Positions 19,063 through 48,806 of a DNA stretch of 64,000 bases are shown here, piece after piece; position 1 is the first letter of the stretch; each line of letters begins with the position of its first letter. The position numbers and the translations under genes were made by a program. This stretch comes from a virus, in IMG/VR virus record IMGVR_UViG_3300048591_000147, positions 1-64,000 of that record; one strand, given 5' to 3'. The notes beneath the pieces are model-generated. The model did not search any database. It worked only from the letters and a program-made list of their open reading frames with translations, and was not told where the DNA came from.

Positions 19063-19954
19063 TCAATAATTCTATATAATTGTCTTTTTGAGGGTCATTA
19101 TTTTTAACCCCATCAATCCACATAGTTACCATTTCTGGAGTTGGTGGCTCAGGTTCTGGTAATTTTTCTACAGGTTCCGCAAATGGATTATATGGACAGT
19201 AGAATGCACCAGCATCTGTTTCTATTTGACATTTATACATAATTGGACCATCAATATTTTTTCTAGGTTCTTTTCTACTGAACTTCTGTTCTAGTGCCAT
19301 AATCAGATCTGTCATGTTGGCTGCGTATAGGCCCGCCGCGTTGAGCGTGTTAATTTCGACGATCTTAATACCGTCTGGCGTTTCGCAAACATCTATCACG
19401 TATGCCTCATGTGGTTGCCAGTCTCTACGATAAGAACAGCACAGGTTGTAAACGAAATTGTCAAATCGTTTATCAACGTCAGATGAGTAATGCACCGTGC
19501 CTCCACGTTTATACATGGATTTCGTTACAATTTTTCTATCTACTATCCAGTACCTATACTCCGCGTAGATTTCTTTAACAGGGCATACTTGGATTAATGT
19601 ATCACCGTTCATAGAAGAACCATAGTCATCACCCATCGTGAGAATACTATGTTGCCAATCTGTAAGCTCTTGATCCGTAAAGACTTTTCCAGCAAATACC
19701 TTGGAATCTTCAATTGGACGAAGGAATGCCGTTCCTGTTACAATCTTGGCATCAGCAAATCTCGACACAACAGCATCAGCATTGAGCATATATGAGCCCC
19801 AATGCTTCATCTGCTCATTGAAATTGACTGGCTCTAGATCGAACACACCGGGATACCAACCTTTCTTTCTTGCAATATGACGCATGGAATAAGATCCCAT
19901 GCATATTACATTAAGTAATAAATAAGAAAAAAGATTCAGTCGAATGACAATCAT
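19043..19954 (-). CDS. ATP-grasp domain protein (DUF4343-like)
   Basis: 'EYRYWIVDRKIVTKSMY' and 'YVIDVCETPDGIKIVEINTLNAAGLY' resemble the ATP-grasp C-terminal lobe. Confidence 0.45.
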   Translation of the reverse strand: MIVIRLNLFSYLLLNVICMGSYSMRHIARKKGWYPGVFDLEPVNFNEQMKHWGSYMLNADAVVSRFADAKIVTGTAFLRPIEDSKVFAGKVFTDQELTDWQHSILTMGDDYGSSMNGDTLIQVCPVKEIYAEYRYWIVDRKIVTKSMYKRGGTVHYSSDVDKRFDNFVYNLCCSYRRDWQPHEAYVIDVCETPDGIKIVEINTLNAAGLYAANMTDLIMALEQKFSRKEPRKNIDGPIMYKCQIETDAGAFYCPYNPFAEPVEKLPEPEPPTPEMVTMWIDGVKNNDPQKDNYIELLKKLPPF

Positions 19955-20007
19955 GGGTTATCTCCTTATACGATAAAACCCCCATAACCGTCGATAAACT
20001 TACTGAA

Positions 20008-20736
20008 TTATATGTGTCTAGGTGCCAGAATGGTATTGGGTTGCGCTGCAAACGCAAATTGCGGGGGTTCGATTCCCTCCCTAGACTCCAAATCTTTAAC
20101 CTTGGCAATCCAGTTTTTAACTTTTTGCCTTTTCATACCCAAAAGGTTGGCGACTTTGGTCACCCAACCATATTTTGTAAAATCTATACCAGATTCGTTT
20201 AGTAATGTTATACGTTCTTGCTGTGATTTAAACCACTCGTTTAAGTGAGTCGCCAACCATTCTTTTCTTTCTTTCTTCTGCGGTTTGATTAATGCCGTTT
20301 TTTTATTTTTAGAACAGTAGTTGGTAGTCTGAGTATGACAATTTGGACACAGCAATCTAAGATTTTCAAATCTGTTATCATCATTTAGACCGTTGATATG
20401 ATCTAATTGTAAAGTTAATGGTAAATTATTATGCGTTCCGGTATTTGCGCATAATGCACACGAGTAATTTGTTAATTCAATAAACCTAGCTTTGACCCTT
20501 TTTCTAGGGACTTCGCAACCTGTAGTAAATAATTCATCATCTGTGTAGTATCTCTTTAAGGCGGTCATATCTCTGCATTTAAAATGTGAAATATCTAAAT
20601 TATATTGTTTTATATATTTGGATAAGGTTCTATAACCTCCACCAGACGTTGAGTTGCAACCCATTTTTGCAATTGCTTCTCTTTTACTTAAACTATTTTG
20701 AATTATTGATTTAATTTCTTCTGCTTTTGTTTCCAT
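20008..20736 (-). CDS. HNH homing endonuclease (Mob-like) with a C-terminal HTH. The 3' end overlaps tRNA-Cys on the opposite strand.
   Basis: 'LQLDHINGLNDDNRFENLRLLCPNCH' HNH motif. Paralog of 48862..49767. Confidence 0.65.
   Translation of the reverse strand: METKAEEIKSIIQNSLSKREAIAKMGCNSTSGGGYRTLSKYIKQYNLDISHFKCRDMTALKRYYTDDELFTTGCEVPRKRVKARFIELTNYSCALCANTGTHNNLPLTLQLDHINGLNDDNRFENLRLLCPNCHTQTTNYCSKNKKTALIKPQKKERKEWLATHLNEWFKSQQERITLLNESGIDFTKYGWVTKVANLLGMKRQKVKNWIAKVKDLESREGIEPPQFAFAAQPNTILAPRHI
20016..20090 (+). tRNA. tRNA-Cys (anticodon GCA)
   Basis: Cloverleaf by eye: acceptor gtctagg/cctagac perfect, D stem ccag/ttgg, anticodon stem ttgcg/cgcaa with loop ctGCAaa, T arm ggggg-ttcgatt-ccctc, encoded CCA. 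Confidence 0.7.
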
Positions 20737-20799
20737 GATTAGATGAACCCCTGTTGTTAATTGTATTTATAATAACTGTAGTTCATCCTCAAATTTGAC

Positions 20800-20960
20800 A
20801 GATACGAATTGGTGTGTTAACATGCTTCACATGAGATCAGGGGAGTTCGACTCTCTCACGAGACTCCAAATAGAATTACTAGTCGAATTGTAAAGGGTTA
20901 TCGCATTCGGAGCGGCTGATATTGGTTCGATTCCAGTGTGTTCCATACAGAGGGACACTA
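20800..20960 (+). other. tRNA-like 3' fragments (T-arm plus acceptor 3' strand plus CCA) lacking 5' partners
   Basis: 'gggagttcgactctctcacgagactcca' and 'attggttcgattccagtgtgttcca'. No complementary 5' acceptor strand lies within 150 nt. Confidence 0.4.
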
Positions 20961-21040
20961 GCTTAATGGATAAAAGCAGCTAAAACATCCTTTCTTAATA
21001 CTTACTAGTATATTAATTTATGTCATAATGAGGAAGCAGC

Positions 21041-21210
21041 ATGGAATGTTACATGGTAGCAAGAAATCCATCAGGTGGAGATTATCTAGTCATGGATTAT
21101 TCATCCTTCGTTAGACAAGGTGGTAACGACCAATCATGGGGTAAGTGTTGGGTAACAATTTACGCTCGCTCCGCGAGTGAAGCTAGAGCTAAGGCATATC
21201 AATACTTATG
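21041..21210 (+). CDS. Small hypothetical protein (56 aa)
   Basis: Strong SD 'gaggaagcagcatg'. ATGA overlap with the next gene. Confidence 0.4.
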
Positions 21211-21468
21211 AAAGTTAATATCAAATTAGAAATTGTCCCATTTACGGTGCCGGATGACGTTGCTTTAAAAGGACCACCAGCACTTAGACAAGATGGATTT
21301 AAACCATTGCAAAGATATCCGCTATCAGCCTTAGACTATGATAGTTTGTCAGAATTATGTTCTAACTTTAGAAAAGAAATTTTCAAAAAGGCTGGAATCA
21401 TTGATCAACAAAATCATAATCCGTATCGCAGTTATGATTCGAATGGTGATCTTGAGGGTGGAAAATGA
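21208..21468 (+). CDS. Hypothetical protein (86 aa)
   Basis: ORF, translationally coupled to neighbours. Confidence 0.45.
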   Translation: MKVNIKLEIVPFTVPDDVALKGPPALRQDGFKPLQRYPLSALDYDSLSELCSNFRKEIFKKAGIIDQQNHNPYRSYDSNGDLEGGK

Positions 21469-21665
21469 CAGACAGATTTCATAGTTTTACAGTGGTTTTA
21501 AAAGAACCGATTCGCGAAGATGACGCAGAAGCATTGATGAATGCCATTAAATGCTTGAAAGGTGTAATTGATGTAGCTGGTAATGTTGCGGATGCTAACG
21601 CATATGTGGCATACTCCAGAGCACGCAGCGAGCTTCGTGATAAATTATGGGATGCACTGAAATGA
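21465..21665 (+). CDS. Hypothetical protein (66 aa)
   Basis: ORF. Confidence 0.4.
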   Translation: MTDRFHSFTVVLKEPIREDDAEALMNAIKCLKGVIDVAGNVADANAYVAYSRARSELRDKLWDALK

Positions 21666-21988
21666 CATCCACAATGGAAAGATTAAAAAAACATCTGGTA
21701 GCGGACAGGCAGAAGAGATTAGATGATCTAAGTGAACAAGATAATACGTTCTTTGATTTGACGAAAACTTCGGCTGAAAGATTTTTAAACAGAGTTAATG
21801 CGCAATTAGATCAAAGATGTCAAGTGATGGAAGCTATATTGCTTAGTCCAACATTTTCCAATGATGACAACAATCAGGAATATATTAACTGTAGCTTGTT
21901 GTTGGATAAGTATGAGAGTTTAATAAAACTTCTTCAACGAGATGATCTACTTGACATACTGGAAAAATGCGGTACAATAGAAGAATAA
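21647..21988 (+). CDS. Hypothetical protein (113 aa; true start possibly at 21662)
   Basis: ORF. Confidence 0.4.
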   Translation: MGCTEMTSTMERLKKHLVADRQKRLDDLSEQDNTFFDLTKTSAERFLNRVNAQLDQRCQVMEAILLSPTFSNDDNNQEYINCSLLLDKYESLIKLLQRDDLLDILEKCGTIEE

Positions 21989-22168
21989 AGAATATTGGTC
22001 GAACGATAAAAGGTTATCTCATTATCAGGGGCTGTAGGAAAGGTTCGAGTCCTTTCTCTTTTCACCAGAATGTAATTTGTGAAGATTATATCCATGTGAA
22101 AAGATGCGCTAGCGGCTGGCGGGCAAAAACATCTTTTTCATTAACTTACCAATTAATTAACAAAGTAG

Positions 22169-22197
22169 TTGACAGCAAGAATAATACGCAGTAGAAT
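22169..22197 (+). promoter_or_regulatory. Sigma70-type promoter TTGACA-N17-TAGAAT
   Basis: Exact -35 hexamer, 17-nt spacer, -10 TAGAAT. Lies inside repeat unit 1. Confidence 0.5.
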
Positions 22198-22380
22198 GTA
22201 CTAAATAAAGAGAACATTGGTCGAACTATAAAAGGTTACCACGTAAAGGGGATGTAGGAATGGTTTAAGTCCATTCGCTTTCCACCAAAATGTAATTTGA
22301 GAAGATTGCATTTCTATGGAAAGCTAGGCGAGGGTCCAGCCGTCCAAAAAAGTCTTTTGTAATAAACTTACCAATTAATG

Positions 22381-22388
22381 TATAAATA
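22381..22388 (+). promoter_or_regulatory. Late promoter motif TATAAATA
   Basis: Exact octamer at the unit 2/3 junction. Confidence 0.35.
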
Positions 22389-22788
22389 GAATAAAAATGT
22401 TGGTCGTTGATAGAAGTTTATCCGATAATCGTCCTAAGTAGAATGAAATAGTTCTGGATCTGGTAGATCTGATGATAAGAAAAATTACTTTTATTGTTAC
22501 ACCTTACCAACGAAAATTAAAATTGTTTAAGTCGAAAATGTAAAGGTTATCACAAACAGTCGTATGTGGGTTCGAGTCCCACCATTGCTGGAAGCAGTAA
22601 TAGTAGGCAAATTGGTTTAGCCAACCGTCAAAAACATCTTTCATTATTACTTACTTGAACATATAATTAGAATAAAATTGTCAGTCGATTTGTAGAAGAT
22701 TATCTTTCGTGAAAAAGGAAATATGGGTTCGACTCCCATCTCGGGCTTGGTGCTATCAAACTCTTTTACTATAACTTATTGACAAACA

Positions 22789-22796
22789 TATAAATA
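22789..22796 (+). promoter_or_regulatory. Late promoter motif TATAAATA
   Basis: Exact octamer before unit 6. Confidence 0.35.
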
Positions 22797-23010
22797 GAAT
22801 TTGTAGTCGATCTGCTAAGAATTATCTTTCAAATGGTGAAGTGGGCTAGGCCCATAATTTCTTGCTAATAACTTACTACAATAATTTTGAATTTATCAGT
22901 CGATAAATGATCATTATCACTCCGCCAAAACTTGGAGATTAGATGGTTCGAATCCATCACTAGCGTCGGTTCGCACTTGGTCGTTGACAACTTACTGGTA
23001 ATATATATTT

Positions 23011-23102
23011 GGATAGGTGTTCGAGCGGTTTAAGAAACTTGCCTTGAAAGCAAGAGATCCACCTAAAAACTGGGTCCGTGGGTTCGAATCCCACTCTATC
23101 CT
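23011..23102 (+). tRNA. tRNA-Ser (anticodon TGA), type II with a long variable arm
   Basis: Acceptor ggatagg/tctatcc (one G.U), D stem ttc/gaa, anticodon stem cttgc/gcaag with loop ctTGAaa, variable stem gatcca/tgggtc, T arm gtggg-ttcgaat-cccac. Confidence 0.6.
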
Positions 23103-23157
23103 CAGTTTTGTGTCCCCACATAAATAGATAAAGACTATTTAATGTGGGAACATAAGC

Positions 23158-23778
23158 ATGTATTATACGATATATCTAGTAACTAATACTATTAATGGTA
23201 ATGTTTACATAGGTAAACATCAAACGAATGATTTAAACGATGGCTATATGGGATCTGGTAAGATCCTTAAAAATGCCATTAAAAAATATGGACTTTGTAG
23301 TTTTCAAAAAACAATTTTACACATATTTGAAAACGAACAAGAGATGAATAAAAAAGAAGCAGAATTAGTAAATGAAGAGTTTATAGTACGAAAGGATACT
23401 TATAATATCTGTGTCGGTGGTTGTGGTGGATTTGGTTATATAAATAAAAATTTACCGAATGGTATGCTTGGTAAAAAGCAAACCGATTTCCAGAAACAAA
23501 GAGTGTCAGAGTGGCATGAGAAAAACAAACATCTTGTTGATAAAAACAAACACTCTGAAATGATTAAAAATGGATTGAAAAAAATGCTCAAACCTTCCGA
23601 TGGCTTTACAGGAAGGACACATACAGAAGATACCAAAAATAAAATGTGCAAGCCTAAAAATATTGGTGAAAGTAATTCACAGTTTGGTAGTATGTGGATA
23701 ACAGATGGTATAAATAGTATTAAAATAAAGAAGACAGATCTTATTCCAGAAGGATGGTATAAAGGTCGTAAAACGTGA
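23158..23778 (+). CDS. GIY-YIG homing endonuclease (Seg-like)
   Basis: 'MYYTIYLVTNTINGNVYIGKH' ... 'YNICVGGCGG'. Paralogous to 33438 and 47537. Confidence 0.7.
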   Translation: MYYTIYLVTNTINGNVYIGKHQTNDLNDGYMGSGKILKNAIKKYGLCSFQKTILHIFENEQEMNKKEAELVNEEFIVRKDTYNICVGGCGGFGYINKNLPNGMLGKKQTDFQKQRVSEWHEKNKHLVDKNKHSEMIKNGLKKMLKPSDGFTGRTHTEDTKNKMCKPKNIGESNSQFGSMWITDGINSIKIKKTDLIPEGWYKGRKT

Positions 23779-24103
23779 AAATGTTTTCTTTTTGGCGTGT
23801 CGTGTTACTGTTTAGTTGGGCTAAAGATGGACTTTGGTTCACTAGACGAAAAGATGGTGACAATGAGAAGCACTTAATAAGTTTTTGTTTTGTAGATAGA
23901 AAAGAAGGTCGCGTGTATACATTCATATGTTGGCGCTTCATGATTAAATTAGGTATTGTATAATTTTCACAGTCGATTAATCTGGTTTACCTTGGAGAAA
24001 CGTCCGACCTAAAAATCGGGTGCGAGTCTGGTTCAAACCCGGACAAAATAGCGAAAGCTATGCTGTATAAAACCATTTTAGCAACTTATTGTGATTTATA
24101 AGA

Positions 24104-33021: not shown

Positions 33022-33046
33022 CAGCAGCACTAAATAGATGTAAGAT
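33018..33046 (+). promoter_or_regulatory. Sigma70-type promoter TTGACA-N17-TAAGAT in front of the tRNA cluster
   Basis: Exact -35 hexamer. 17-nt spacer. Confidence 0.5.
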
Positions 33047-33055
33047 ACACAAACT

Positions 33056-33437: not shown

Positions 33438-34313
33438 ATGAAAGTTTATACCGTATATAAAACCACAAACATCGTAAATAACAAATATTATATCGGCGTA
33501 CATAAGACTGCCAATCCAAATGATGATTATCTTGGTTCTGGCACCGTCTTCAAGTTAGCAATCAAAAAATACGGAAAACAAAACTTCAAAAAAGAAGTTT
33601 TGTTTGTATTTGATGATTTAAAAGACGCATATGAAAAAGAATATGAATTAGTTAATGAAGCATTTGTAAAATGTGAAGATAATTATAACTTGCACATTGG
33701 TGGGTCTGGTGGATTAGCTTTTGAATACATCAACAATGATGTTGAATTTAGAAAAGCAAAGAATAGAAAAGCCCAAGCCGCCATGATAGCTACTGGATAT
33801 TATAAAACACCAGAACATAAAGCTAAAATGTCTGAGTTAAGGAAACAAGAATATAAAGAAGGTAAAAGAGTAGTTAATCCAGAATTTCCAAATGCTTTTA
33901 AAGGAAAGAAACATTCTGAAGAAACTTTAAGAAAAATGAGTGAGTCATCGAAAGGTGTAACTGCGGGGGAGAAAAATTCGCAGTTTGGCACTAGATGGTG
34001 TAATGATGGCGTGAATAATATCAAAATATCCAAGGGTGGGGAAATTCCAGAAGGCTACCACTTGGGTAAAGTTAAACTGGCTAAAGAGCAGCGCAAGCCG
34101 CGTATAGTAAAGTCACAAAAGAAACATGATAATTATGATTTTGGTGCACCAAGAAGAAAAGCTACAATAGAAGATATTAAAATTGCATTATTAAAACATG
34201 ATAAAAACATAAACGATGCGATGGTTAGTTTAGGATATAAAGCGAATAGTTCAGGCAACTCTAGATATAGATTTGAAAAGGTGTTAAAAGCACTTGACAT
34301 CAGCACTAAATAG
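33438..34313 (+). CDS. GIY-YIG homing endonuclease (Seg-like) with a C-terminal DNA-binding extension
   Basis: 'KVYTVYKTTNIVNNKYYIGVHKT' ... 'YNLHIGGSGG'. Confidence 0.7.
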   Translation: MKVYTVYKTTNIVNNKYYIGVHKTANPNDDYLGSGTVFKLAIKKYGKQNFKKEVLFVFDDLKDAYEKEYELVNEAFVKCEDNYNLHIGGSGGLAFEYINNDVEFRKAKNRKAQAAMIATGYYKTPEHKAKMSELRKQEYKEGKRVVNPEFPNAFKGKKHSEETLRKMSESSKGVTAGEKNSQFGTRWCNDGVNNIKISKGGEIPEGYHLGKVKLAKEQRKPRIVKSQKKHDNYDFGAPRRKATIEDIKIALLKHDKNINDAMVSLGYKANSSGNSRYRFEKVLKALDISTK

Positions 34314-34336
34314 AAGTATCATAGCAACATATCAAT

Positions 34337-34423
34337 TGGATCGTCACCCAGTGGACGAAGGTAGCGGGCTTTTAACCCGATTGCGAAAGCACAACGTGGG
34401 TTCGAATCCCACCGATCCAACCA
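34337..34423 (+). tRNA. Type-II-like tRNA gene (anticodon loop cuuuuaa; identity uncertain), copy 1
   Basis: Perfect acceptor tggatcg/cgatcca, T arm gtggg-ttcgaat-cccac, CCA encoded. Anticodon stem cggg/cccg. 15-nt variable arm. Confidence 0.5.
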
Positions 34424-35366: not shown

Positions 35367-35479
35367 TGGATCGTCACCCAGTGGACGAAGGTAGCGGGCT
35401 CTTAAAATACTTTTACGAGAGTATTTTGAAACCCGATTGCGAAAGCACAACGTGGGTTCGAATCCCACCGATCCAACCA
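35367..35479 (+). tRNA. Copy 2 of the 34337 tRNA-like gene, carrying a 31-nt hairpin insertion in the anticodon loop
   Basis: Identical to copy 1 except that 'ctcttaaaatacttttacgagagtattttgaaa' replaces 'cttttaa'. The insert forms a 7-bp hairpin aaaatac/gtatttt. Confidence 0.45.
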
Positions 35480-48512: not shown

Positions 48513-48534
48513 GAATAATGTAATAGTATAATGG

Positions 48535-48653
48535 CATGTAGCTTAGAGGCAGAGCGAGTGACTGTGGAAGGAAACGTCAAGGCGTTGATCAGTTCGAATC
48601 TGATAACTTCAAAAGTAATCACTAGGTCGTAGGTTCGATCCCTACCTTGCCAG
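48535..48653 (+). tRNA. Over-length tRNA-like gene (119 nt) containing an internal extra T-arm-like hairpin
   Basis: Outer acceptor tggcatg/cttgcca (1 U.U). Terminal T arm gtagg-ttcgatc-cctac. Internal 'atcag-ttcgaat-ctgat'. Confidence 0.3.
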
Positions 48654-48667
48654 CATAAAATTTAAAT

Positions 48668-48806
48668 GTCTCTTTGGCCGAGTGGACTATGGCAACAGGC
48701 TGTGGGTGTAAGAGTAAAGGCTCTGATCAGTTCGAATCTGAAATCACCGAAAGTAACCTGTCAGATGAAAATCTAATCACTGGTTCGAATCCAGTAGGGG
48801 ACTCCA
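48668..48806 (+). tRNA. Over-length tRNA-like gene (139 nt), Ser-type D loop 'GGCCGAGTGG', containing an internal extra T-arm-like hairpin
   Basis: Outer acceptor gtctctt/aggggac (two G.U) plus T plus CCA. Terminal T arm actgg-ttcgaat-ccagt. 'acagg' and 'cctgt' sit ~70 nt apart. The internal 'tgatcagttcgaatctga' duplicates the one in 48535..48653. Confidence 0.3.

Follow-up and report, generated by a model that had tools for sequence, protein, structure and literature searches.

The window analyzed here, a 64-kb stretch from the genome of a 315-kb phage, contains ten repeat units, all on the + strand, between positions 19933 and 24094, in a region of tRNA and homing-endonuclease genes. Seven of them had been described as direct repeats in the initial annotation, and both repeat finding and MAFFT self-comparison showed that they are real; an eighth (u0) lies near position 20900, where a recurrence of the shared motif had also been recorded, and two more were added. 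The T-loop at approximately 20840 corresponds to a leftover 3' end of a tRNA-Cys and lies outside any unit. A common 5' motif, (A/G)GTCGA..TA(A/G)A(A/G)G(N)TTATC, was recovered in all units, and the composite pattern GTCGAW-N4-WRRRRRTTAYC-N12-40-GGTTYRANTCC occurred five times in the window, against zero expected. When the full signature was required (the 5' motif, YUAYC, MCTTAY and a closing helix of at least 5 bp), exactly the ten units were retrieved (+ strand, 19.9-24.1 kb), with no match elsewhere in the window or on the - strand, and 0.08 matches per window in Markov-random sequence. The repeats are genuine, and their frequency is far above that given by chance.

The units share a general plan, in which a unit-specific closing helix of 5-8 bp pairs the 5' and 3' ends and encloses an internal loop with GUCGA(A/U) on its 5' side and ACUUAY on its 3' side, followed by a second helix and, in a multiloop, by YUAYC and the inner modules. 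The order of these modules is V hairpin, T arm, 7-bp closed acceptor-like hairpin, UA (TG in u1) and D arm in u0, u1, u2 and u4; the remaining six units have a reduced multiloop content, without D arm or acceptor-like hairpin. The features of the region, in positional order, are as follows.

19933-20009, + strand: um1, candidate minimal Y RNA-like stem-loop without tRNA-like domain, ending 6 nt 5' of tRNA-Cys; closing helix GATTCAG/CTGAATT (7 bp), GTCGAATG motif, GGGTTATC, 3' AACTTAC
20016-20090, + strand: tRNA-Cys(GCA), a neighbor and not a unit (ARAGORN; Rfam, 61.8 bits); 5' processing site 6 nt past um1
20877-21010, + strand: u0, candidate full YrlA-like RNA; closing helix TACTAG/CTAGTA, second helix AAAGGGT/ATCCTTT, V hairpin TCGC/GCGG, T arm ATTGG-TTCGATT-CCAGT, acceptor-like hairpin GTGTTCC/GGGACAC, D arm TA-GCTT-AATGGATAA-AAGC, 3' strand AAAACATCCTTT..ACTTAC
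21951-21978, + strand: sigma-70-like TTGACA-N16-TACAAT, a consensus match only (11/12 positions)
21994-22153, + strand: u1, candidate RNA of the complete YrlA-like type, the acceptor-like hairpin being long; closing helix ATTGG/CCAAT, second helix AAAAGGT/ATCTTTT, T stem AAAGG/CCTTT, acceptor-like strand TCTTTTC followed by an encoded ACCA and paired with GAAAAGA downstream, then TG and D arm CGC-TAGCGGCTG-GCG
22169-22197, + strand: predicted sigma-70-like TTGACA-N17-TAGAAT between u1 and u2 (11/12 consensus positions)
22216-22375, + strand: u2, paralogue of u1 with the full YrlA-like layout; acceptor-like strand GCTTTCC plus ACCA, with 7/7 pairs to GGAAAGC downstream, then TA and D arm GGC-GAGGGTCC-AGCC
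22381-22388, + strand: TATAAATA, exact match to the T4-type late-promoter consensus, 9 nt 5' of the u3 closing helix
22398-22512, + strand: u3, reduced, with GTCGTT motif and two inner hairpins, without T loop; closing helix TGTTGG/CCAACG, second helix GATAGAAGT/ACTTTTATT
22524-22661, + strand: u4, candidate full YrlA-like RNA; 8-bp closing helix TGTTTAAG/CTTGAACA, T arm GTGGG-TTCGAGT-CCCAC, tetraloop-closed acceptor-like hairpin ATTGCTG-GAAG-CAGTAAT, D arm TA-GGC-AAATTGGTTTA-GCC, 3' strand AAAACATCTTT..ACTTAC
22678-22785, + strand: u5, reduced, with V hairpin and T arm, without D arm; closing helix TTGTCAG/TTGACAA, second helix GTAGAAGA/TCTTTTAC
22789-22796, + strand: putative late-promoter-like TATAAATA, exact match, 5 nt 5' of u6
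22801-22881, + strand: u6, minimal, with a single inner hairpin TGGGC/GCCCA; closing helix TTGTAG/CTACAA, second helix TAAGAA/TTCTTG
22893-23001, + strand: u7, reduced, with V hairpin and T arm, ending 9 nt 5' of tRNA-Ser; closing helix TTATCAG/CTGGTAA, second helix AATGATCA/TGGTCGTT
23011-23103, + strand: tRNA-Ser(UGA), a neighbor and not a unit (ARAGORN; Rfam, 54.7 bits); 5' processing site 9 nt past u7
23967-24094, + strand: u9, the tenth unit, found by the composite signature; T arm TCTGG-TTCAAAC-CCGGA, closing helix TCACAG/TTGTGA

These limits are shifted with respect to those drawn initially, since AACTTAC and the following 5-7 nt form the 3' end of the preceding unit; ACTTAC had been read as part of the promoter of the next unit, and is instead the 3' strand motif of the unit before it. 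The similarity reported for the first two repeats (over ~180 bp) was also recovered, here as a 112-nt common block of u1 and u2 with 72% identity.

Promoter motifs are present at 22169, 22381 and 22789, as had been pointed out, and promoter-like hexamers or TATAAATA were found between most units. The sigma-70-like motif at 21951 is located within the 3' end of the upstream ORF, approximately 15 nt 5' of u1, and a similar TTGACA..TACACT is found at the end of the homologous ORF preceding the array in L010, one of the related phages described below. In another one, L003, TTGACA-N17-TAGAAT is found in identical form upstream of the u4 orthologue, while the TATAAATA preceding u6 is conserved in both relatives. 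Scans of the region for sigma-70-like promoters and for terminators gave no more matches than chance, and no intrinsic terminators were found after the units. Because the number of TATAAATA copies in the window was not above chance either (14 vs. 9.2 expected), a promoter function for the copy at 22381 is deduced solely from its position.

Folding and conservation of the units

The closing helices differ in sequence from unit to unit, and their pairing is specific: cognate strands form 6.3 bp on average vs. 2.9 bp for non-cognate ones, and none of 37,006 partner derangements reached the cognate sum of 63 bp. The second helices (5-10 bp) also covary, as in AAAGGGT/ATCCTTT of u0, GTAGAAGA/TCTTTTAC of u5 and TAAGAA/TTCTTG of u6. 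Minimum free energy (MFE) folds computed independently for eight units gave the same closed-stem layout in all eight, that of u3 being closed by both of its helices, with modest z-scores (-1.0 to -2.5; -2.5 for um1, -2.25 for u6 and -1.96 for u9). Since MAFFT could not align the units evenly enough over the acceptor and D regions to support a trustworthy covariance model, a nhmmer profile and explicit pair counting were used.

Sequence motifs were shared to different extents. GUCG was present in 10/10 units, GUCGA in 9/10 and GNCGAA in 5/10, the strict form GNCGAAN0-1G being restricted to um1 (GTCGAATG) and u1 (GTCGAACG); four to five units (among them u5, u6, u7 and u9) carry GUCGAU, and u3 carries GUCGUU. 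A YUAY element (TTATC, TTACC or TTTACC) was found in all ten. T stem-loops with a 5-bp stem (5/5 pairs) and a TTCGANT-type loop occur in u0, u1, u2, u4, u5, u7 and u9, and are absent from um1, u3 and u6. The proposal that most repeats carry a T-loop hairpin holds in part: GGTTCGANTCC is found in u1, u4, u5 and u7, whereas u2 has GGTTTAAGTCC and u3 and u6 have none. Both the 7-bp acceptor-like hairpin and the D stem-loop, with GG in every D loop, are confined to u0, u1, u2 and u4. In u1 the hairpin is part of an inverted repeat (22057-22076/22085-22104), and with respect to it the hairpin of u2 shows changes on both strands that preserve the pairing.

The comparison with related phages that the initial annotation had called for was carried out, and the units were found to be syntenic in two related jumbo phages (L003/L018 and L010), with compensatory changes in T stems (u2, u5, u7), acceptor-like hairpins (u0, u4) and a V hairpin (u7). 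The u2 T stem AATGG/CCATT is replaced by TCTGG/CCAGA in L010, while in L003 those of u5 (ATGGG/CCCAT) and u7 (GATGG/CCATC) read GTGGG/CCCAC and GTTGG/CCAAC; the V hairpin is deleted from u5 of L003, and the V stem of u7 changes from CTCC/GGAG to TCCC/GGGA. In L010, the acceptor-like hairpin of u0 is ACGTTCC/GGGACGT and that of u4 is ATTATTA-GAAA-TAATAAT, with another GAAA-capped hairpin in u4 of L003. Among the units with fewer modules, um1 is conserved in both relatives, u3 keeps its outer helices in L010 with a replaced inner hairpin sequence, and u6 keeps its hairpin stem in L003 with a loop changed from TAG to CGCGT. Overall, the units are conserved about as well as the neighboring tRNA-Ser, or better, and their structure appears, from these substitution patterns, to be under purifying selection.

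Unit order and number vary among the window, L010 and L003, and endonuclease genes are inserted at unit borders. A GIY-YIG endonuclease gene lies between tRNA-Ser and u9 in the window; this gene is absent in L003, where the u9 orthologue directly follows tRNA-Ser. Searches of 20700-23200 against 50,697 phage records (megablast and blastn) returned similarity to tRNA-Ser only and no isolate relative, and the upstream 113-aa ORF, used as a synteny anchor, had no match in IMG/VR. Another locus, L001, obtained from a first scan with a short motif, was discarded as a chance match within an RNA-virus replicase gene.

Relation to Y RNAs and other structured RNAs

A pattern derived from the window units only retrieved 29 metagenome loci, and TROVE and/or vWA_Ro60 domains (Ro60/Rsr) were detected in nine of ten tested ORFs adjoining metagenome loci; in one of these loci, L032, the C-terminus of Rsr is followed by an array of similar units. 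A nhmmer profile derived from unrelated loci, most of them Rsr-linked (41 units), placed u0 (E = 8.1e-10), u4 (1e-7), u1 (1.9e-6) and u5 (3.6e-6) as its top four matches in the 64 kb, with u2 at 0.01. The match to u0 spans nearly the whole external profile, while real tRNAs scored lower and matched through their T or D arms only. The Rfam YrlA model (RF02553) gave a local match of 17.2 bits on u0 (model positions 27-81, T-AS-D) and no match at E ≤ 10 across 19800-23300, where nine of the ten units lie; Rsr-adjacent relatives reached 26-40 bits (E of ~1e-5 to 1e-6), also below the gathering threshold of 69. Given a score of 17 bits against this threshold, the units would belong to a divergent Y RNA subfamily.

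The order of the modules agrees with the consensus structure line of Rfam YrlA and with those features that Chen et al. (2014; PMC4201824) describe, namely a 5' GNCGAA, a YUAY opening the V region, and T, AS and D stem-loops. Taken together, the window repeats are probably ten tandem Y RNA-like small-RNA genes of the YrlA/YrlB type, an identity absent from the candidates listed in the initial annotation. Y RNAs of this kind mimic tRNAs and bind Ro60/Rsr, a protein of RNA surveillance; YrlA RNAs are further characterized by Rsr binding in vivo and by tRNA-type modifications (pseudouridine 55, dihydrouridine). For Y RNA-like genes, the size of the array is unusually large.

With YrlA the array has in common the paired termini, 5' G-N-CGA(A), a variable hairpin opened by YUAY, T arm, acceptor-like hairpin (7 bp also in YrlA of M. 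smegmatis), UA and D arm. It differs in being AT-rich, in its frequent GUCGAU and in comprising ten copies instead of one or two; besides, the 3' strand AAACAUCYUU..ACUUAY is recognizable in the array, whereas in YrlA of Salmonella and M. smegmatis only the 5' strand is (Chen et al., PMC4201824). Judged by their published description only, YrlB and the short Y RNAs of S. Typhimurium and M. smegmatis, which have GNCGAA, lie beside YrlA and lack the full tRNA-like domain, resemble um1, u3 and u6, and in part u5, u7 and u9.

Metazoan Y RNAs (such as human Y1) and Yrn1 of Deinococcus share with the units a terminal stem with bulges or an internal loop, GGUC(C)GA in its 5' strand and ACUU within a conserved 3' strand. 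Animal Y RNAs are Pol III transcripts without a tRNA-like domain. Their motif is GGUCCGA, and in Yrn1 the T and D elements have a different orientation (PMC4201824). The internal loop formed by GUCGA(A/U) and ACUUAY appears, by sequence comparison, to correspond to the GNCGAA/GGUCCGA motif contacted by Ro60.

The location of the array is a further difference. YrlA has been reported from Salmonella, Mycobacterium and 22 phages, with published genes less than 4 kb from rsr (PMC4201824), and in Thermus phage phiLo two RNAs, Yrl1 and Yrl2, carry a CGAA motif, lie directly upstream of the Ro60 gene, bind the phage Ro60 and assemble with the host PNPase (PMC12135203). The ten RNAs of the array are located among tRNA genes, and the sequence searched contains no Ro60 gene: a HMM of six Rsr proteins gave no match in any window ORF of 60 aa or longer, and no TROVE domain was found in the ~10 kb of contig that follow the window. 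The array thus has no such gene at a distance of ~4 kb or less, and none over at least 20 kb on its upstream side or ~50 kb on its downstream side. Likewise, no Rsr/TROVE gene was found in the examined parts of three relatives, and the L003 contig was not among the best 80 of 198 loci in Rsr pattern scans of IMG/VR (two protein and one DNA, with few peptide patterns). In one 488-kb phage contig, the motif and a Rsr gene are roughly 90-390 kb apart.

The signature (closing helix, GUCGAW, YUAYC, ACUUAY) also matches Y RNA genes that lack annotation and are located close to Ro-like genes in known phages. In Mycobacterium phage Alice, the match overlaps two ORFs annotated as hypothetical.

Other structured RNAs were compared as well. 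Two-piece tmRNA and permuted tRNA genes resemble the array in that the 5' acceptor strand comes after both the T arm and the 3' acceptor strand, and the Rfam model of cyanobacterial permuted tmRNA matched u0 weakly (16.2 bits), with partial tmRNA T-arm matches of 13-16 bits; tmRNA was rejected, there being no tag reading frame, no ARAGORN tmRNA call and no conserved anticodon arm. The stable RNAs rnaC and rnaD of T4, both of which lack a closing stem as well as the GNCGAA motif, are considered unrelated. Two further candidates, tRNA halves (split or trans-spliced) and small self-cleaving ribozymes of the hammerhead, hairpin or HDV-like types, were discarded, with no core motifs and no Rfam matches.

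Weighing of alternative readings

The relation of the units to tRNAs, already suspected, is borne out by their T arm, acceptor-like hairpin and D arm modules, which are in permuted order. As had also been stated, no unit folds into a cloverleaf. ARAGORN called none of them as a tRNA, and the covariance-model check proposed at that time gave 22.5 bits (20873-20945) and 17.6 bits (22683-22741) with the Rfam tRNA model, below the threshold of 29; the partner of the 3' acceptor strand is located downstream, not upstream, and ordinary tRNAs were rejected. These weak matches, the tRNA-like T loops, the location among tRNA and homing-endonuclease genes and the variable unit content of the relatives are what could be expected of non-functional pseudogenes decaying after tandem duplication of a (class II) tRNA gene, a version of the decayed copies considered initially. 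We regard this as highly improbable: permuted modules (T arm, closed hairpin, D arm) lie within a closing stem kept by covariation between paralogues, changes in related phages are compensatory rather than random, the units are conserved at least as well as tRNA-Ser, and the identical signature marks Rsr loci elsewhere. Another idea, that the 5' motif represents the D arm of a class II tRNA and that the units are tRNAs truncated at their 5' end, was abandoned in view of the closing helices and of the similarity to Y RNAs.

That circularly permuted or interrupted tRNA genes yield working tRNAs, by joining across the stem and opening of the acceptor hairpin, is suggested by the 7-bp acceptor-like stem followed by ACCA in u1 and u2, by the cleavage and CCA addition known for YrlA of M. 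smegmatis, and by other contigs in which the same stem module occurs inside otherwise complete tRNA genes (7/7 acceptor pairing, encoded CCA, normal anticodon loops). Yet the equivalent of the anticodon arm is not conserved, being deleted in u5 of L003 and otherwise having loops of odd length or without U33; six units have no D arm, the tetraloop of the u4 acceptor hairpin leaves no room for a 3' end, and no ligation machinery or splice signals were identified, so that such an origin of functional tRNAs seems very unlikely. The contigs with complete tRNAs also suggested that the module is a tRNA "intron" at position 27/28, which was rejected.

Of the explanations put forward at first, a family of promoter-driven small RNAs came nearest to the evidence; recombination hot-spot repeats explain neither the structure nor the link with Ro60/Rsr loci. 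The promoter-like motifs between most units, the shifting order and number of units and the endonuclease genes at their borders could also reflect mobile cassettes of promoter and stem-loop, similar to the PeSLs of T4-type phages, which punctuate transcription and are shuffled as modules by repeat recombination. As an account of the array this is improbable, as it leaves the GUCGA/YUAYC/ACUUAY motifs, the tRNA-mimic core and the association with Rsr in unrelated contigs unexplained, and no intrinsic terminators follow the units. Such cassettes could, however, hold alongside the Y RNA explanation rather than replace it.

Proposed role and implications

On the Y RNA reading, the units would be transcribed on the + strand from promoters lying among them, some early (sigma-70-like) and others late (TATAAATA), with read-through precursors probably produced too, and RNase P cleavage of the tRNAs after um1 and u7 would trim part of the 3' ends. 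By analogy with known Y RNAs, for which Rsr binding and tethering to PNPase are documented (PMC4201824), the units may bind Ro60/Rsr, either encoded by the phage elsewhere in its 315-kb genome or provided by the host. As described for Deinococcus, Salmonella and phiLo, the RNAs could then gate Ro60 or attach it to an exoribonuclease, for instance PNPase, and might in this way redirect the decay or repair of structured RNAs during infection. With their 7-bp acceptor-like stem and encoded ACCA, u1 and u2 may be cut open by RNase P to give RNAs in two pieces, as the YrlA of M. smegmatis, also with a 7-bp stem, is cleaved by RNase P and receives CCA (PMC4201824).

A bolder scenario, which we consider doubtful, is that this phage lineage has no Ro60 of its own and that its ten differently timed Y RNA mimics capture or re-programme the host Ro60/Rsr-PNPase or other tRNA-binding factors (such as anticodon nucleases), u1 and u2 giving rise to CCA-ended two-piece RNAs; the array and the unpermuted genes combining a tRNA with a Y-stem, found in tRNA clusters of other jumbo phages, would then document the origin of Y RNAs from tRNA genes via circular permutation.

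Y RNAs of bacteria and phages are still little understood, and to our knowledge nearly all of those catalogued are single genes or pairs located beside rsr. A ten-gene array overlooked by standard models would imply that the phage family is larger and more divergent than annotated, and that Y RNA genes can be unlinked from rsr, with forms ranging from a Ro-binding stem alone to a complete tRNA mimic. Located in a tRNA and homing-endonuclease region of a 315-kb phage, and having its own putative promoters, the array may offer a tractable system to address the role of the tRNA-like domain and whether phages subvert host RNA surveillance or repair by means of Y RNAs.

The repeat units and their structure

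Y RNA-like genes form an array at 19933-24094. The direct repeats reported at 21990-23000 by the initial annotation were real: repeat finding and alignment recovered a 5' block, (A/G)GTCGA..TARARG(N)TTATC, common to the seven units and a further copy near 20900, the GGTTCGANTCC hairpin was present in most units, and the quoted promoter-like strings were found in the sequence. That the units are not tRNAs also held, since none was called by ARAGORN (only tRNA-Cys at 20016 and tRNA-Ser at 23011 were called in the repeat stretch) and two of them reached just 22.5 and 17.6 bits on the Rfam tRNA model (threshold 29 bits). AACTTAC, previously read as part of the next unit's promoter, instead belongs to the unit before it and forms that unit's 3' strand.

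Each unit is closed by a helix in which the Y of ACUUAY and the bases after it are paired with the G of GUCGA and the 5-7 nt that precede this motif. The cognate closing helices sum to 63 bp, a value reached by none of 37,006 partner derangements. A second helix of 5-10 bp, in which the purine run before YUAYC pairs with the pyrimidine run of AAACAUCUUU, also covaries between units. The full signature was found in exactly ten units, all on the + strand (expectation 0.08 per random window).

Table. Y RNA-like units: coordinates, strand, closing helix and E-value on the 41-unit profile (see below).
19933-20009 (+), um1: GATTCAG/CTGAATT
20877-21010 (+), u0: TACTAG/CTAGTA; E 8.1e-10, nearly full length
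21994-22153 (+), u1: ATTGG/CCAAT; E 1.9e-6
22216-22375 (+), u2: ATTGG/CCAAT, as u1; E 0.01
22398-22512 (+), u3: TGTTGG/CCAACG
22524-22661 (+), u4: TGTTTAAG/CTTGAACA; E 1e-7
22678-22785 (+), u5: TTGTCAG/TTGACAA; E 3.6e-6
22801-22881 (+), u6: TTGTAG/CTACAA
22893-23001 (+), u7: TTATCAG/CTGGTAA; E 0.08
23967-24094 (+), u9: TCACAG/TTGTGA

Separate MFE folds of eight units gave a common closed-stem layout (z-scores -1.0 to -2.5). Every YrlA element (V hairpin, T arm and 7-bp acceptor-like hairpin, with UA or UG and then a D arm with GG) was present in u0, u1, u2 and u4; the T arm was retained in u5, u7 and u9, while um1, u3 and u6 consisted of the stem and one or two hairpins only, resembling short YrlB-type RNAs.

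Assignment to the YrlA family and constraint between relatives

YrlA RNAs are defined by a 5' GNCGAAN0-1G motif, YUAY opening a variable hairpin, and near-invariant T and D stem-loops with an 'acceptor' stem-loop between them (Chen et al. 2014, PMC4201824). The consensus of the Rfam model (Y RNA-like, RF02553) runs from a terminal stem with cgaA on its 5' strand through T arm, closed hairpin, UA and D arm to the 3' strand, a permuted order already noticed in window units such as u1 and u2. There, TCTTTTC-ACCA and GCTTTCC-ACCA, respectively, follow the T arm and pair 7/7 with the downstream strand, not upstream; UG or UA and the D arm come next. A run of tandem tRNAs may resemble the T-D portion of YrlA (Chen et al. 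2014, PMC4201824); such mimicry was ruled out in the window because no tRNAs were called in the units and the T-acceptor-D block is enclosed by a stem.

The window comes from a metagenomic contig of 314,913 bp whose phage genes (HNH and GIY-YIG endonucleases, PHROG families) and many scattered tRNAs mark it as a jumbo phage. A similarity search of 50,697 phage records found no isolate phage similar to the repeat region. The pattern GTCGAW-N4-WRRRRRTTAYC-N12-40-GGTTYRANTCC, derived from window units alone, occurred five times in the window (0 expected) and at 7 viral and 29 metagenome loci elsewhere. Among these, L003, L018 (identical in sequence to L003) and L010 were syntenic relatives, with flanking genes at 50-97% amino-acid identity and the order of orthologous units conserved; the number of units varied, as did the presence of endonuclease genes at their borders. 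At the remaining loci the motif lay inside tRNA-like genes uncalled by ARAGORN.

The Rfam YrlA model gave sub-threshold, non-random scores on the pattern loci (26-40 bits, E ~1e-5 to 1e-6). TROVE and/or vWA_Ro60 domains were found in 9/10 ORFs adjoining pattern matches, which are therefore Ro60/Rsr, and at an eleventh locus (L032) an Rsr C-terminus was followed by an array of AT-rich units, three or four in number, with the same layout as in the window. A profile HMM was built from 41 units, all from loci outside the window's lineage and most <3 kb from phage Rsr genes; it matched six window units (Table), and genuine window tRNAs scored lower, through T or D arms only.

Changes in stems between the window and its relatives were compensatory.

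Table. Paired changes between the window and relatives.
u5 T stem: window ATGGG/CCCAT; L003 GTGGG/CCCAC
u7 T stem: window GATGG/CCATC; L003 GTTGG/CCAAC
u7 V stem: window CTCC/GGAG; L003 TCCC/GGGA
u2 T stem: window AATGG/CCATT; L010 TCTGG/CCAGA
u0 acceptor hairpin: window GTGTTCC/GGGACAC; L010 ACGTTCC/GGGACGT
u4 acceptor hairpin: window ATTGCTG-GAAG-CAGTAAT; L010 ATTATTA-GAAA-TAATAAT

The hairpin at the 'anticodon' position is dispensable, as that of u5 is deleted in L003. This speaks against both decoding and neutral decay.

Putative expression and the tRNA setting

Promoter-like elements lie upstream of u1 (TTGACA-N16-TACAAT, 21951-21978) and u2 (TTGACA-N17-TAGAAT, 22169-22197), and in u3 and u6 the closing helix is preceded, at a distance of 5-9 nt, by TATAAATA. 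L003 and L010 retain comparable elements. The units may be expressed from these elements, a case that remains positional because promoter-like matches in the region were not enriched over chance. Only 6 nt separate um1 from tRNA-Cys and 9 nt u7 from tRNA-Ser, so that RNase P cleavage of these downstream tRNAs would also generate the 3' ends of um1 and u7. In Mycobacterium smegmatis YrlA, RNase P cleaves a 7-bp stem and CCA is added (PMC4201824); u1 and u2 are similar, but already encode ACCA. Two strong promoter-like TTGACA-N17-TAnnAT sites with a common spacer, CAGCACTAAATAGA, were found just upstream of tRNA genes (33022-33050 and 34295-34323) and may represent a phage-specific early promoter variant.

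Two endonuclease genes lie within the region. Between tRNA-Cys and the remnant of a tRNA 3' end (20838-20868, CAGGGGAGTTCGACTCTCTCACGAGACTCCA) is an HNH gene (20008-20736, -); the remnant matches the 3' end of a different tRNA-Cys allele in L003. A GIY-YIG gene (23158-23778) separates tRNA-Ser from u9, two features that are neighbours in L003. Both arrangements look like traces of endonuclease homing into this stretch of tRNA and Y RNA genes.

Several tRNA genes of the window phage carry short inserts. A tRNA-Lys(UUU) of 87 nt (34337-34423) is unusual among lysine tRNAs in its long variable region and its class II-like D arm (CCCAGTGGACGAAGG); its near copy (35367-35476) has the anticodon loop CTCTTAA plus a ~23-nt hairpin. 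A 122-nt Rfam tRNA match (48532-48653, 50 bits) and a class II-like gene (48670-48800) share a ~45-50-nt insert in or near the anticodon loop, containing a T-loop-like hairpin, GATCAGTTCGAATCTGA.

On other contigs, some with jumbo-phage tRNA clusters and others with Rsr loci, the Y-stem module seen in the window units (here the 3' strand, then a small loop and the 5' strand GUCGA..GGUUAUC) lies between D arm and anticodon stem of otherwise complete, unpermuted tRNA genes (L006 3591-3736, -; L004/L005/L007/L009; L012, L013, L015, L016, L020, L033). In these genes the acceptor pairs 7/7, CCA is often encoded, and the anticodon loops are normal (Cys GCA, Pro UGG, Lys CUU, Ile UAU, plus a UUA predicted to read the stop codon UAA). 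They could be chimeras of tRNA and Y RNA or, in another reading phase, tandem YrlA arrays. A sub-threshold HDV-like ribozyme (F. prausnitzii) match (38.5 bits, threshold 44) was found in the L007 phage tRNA cluster (1519-1585, +).

Proposed Ro60 partnership and known phage Y RNAs

Some features fit the family poorly. The best unit scored 17.2 bits on the Rfam YrlA model (threshold 69), and the strict GNCGAAN0-1G motif occurred in two units only, with a GUCGAU variant in five. No Rsr gene was found in the 64-kb window, the next ~10 kb of the contig or the fetched parts of relatives, and the L003 contig was absent among the matches listed in non-exhaustive IMG/VR scans for Rsr. On one 488-kb phage contig the motif lies in a tRNA cluster roughly 90-390 kb from the Rsr gene, indicating that linkage is not obligatory. 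Ro60 binding and any downstream effect are therefore inferred from what is documented for the family (PMC4201824, PMC12135203). The structural identification is better supported than the putative Ro60 partnership, which is plausible; the two together we regard as fairly likely.

Y RNA-like genes were already known in 22 phages (Chen et al. 2014, PMC4201824) and as Yrl1/Yrl2 in Thermus phage phiLo (PMC12135203); some jumbo phages are reported to encode TROVE proteins, and 359 phage records, mostly of actinobacteriophages, had annotated Ro-like proteins. In Mycobacterium phage Alice, the external Y RNA profile (41 units) matched (E = 6e-15) L188 5676-5815 (NC_028986, about 127057-127196), directly upstream of Ro-like gp220 and overlapping hypothetical ORFs gp218 and gp219, where no Y RNA is annotated. 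A search within 6 kb of the Ro-like gene of Agrobacterium phage Atu_ph07 detected no unit. Tandem sets of three or four units, short and long alternating, lie directly beside Rsr genes on two phage-like contigs (L032 540-1000, L086 1301-1730), so arrays as such are not unique to the window phage. Around phage Rsr genes, whether already known or metagenomic, our searches found zero to four units, and the ten-unit array is therefore a new form within the known phage Y RNA-like genes. Its ten units occur in graded forms with putative promoters of their own, in a tRNA and homing-endonuclease setting, with no adjacent rsr, and are missed by the curated Rfam model.
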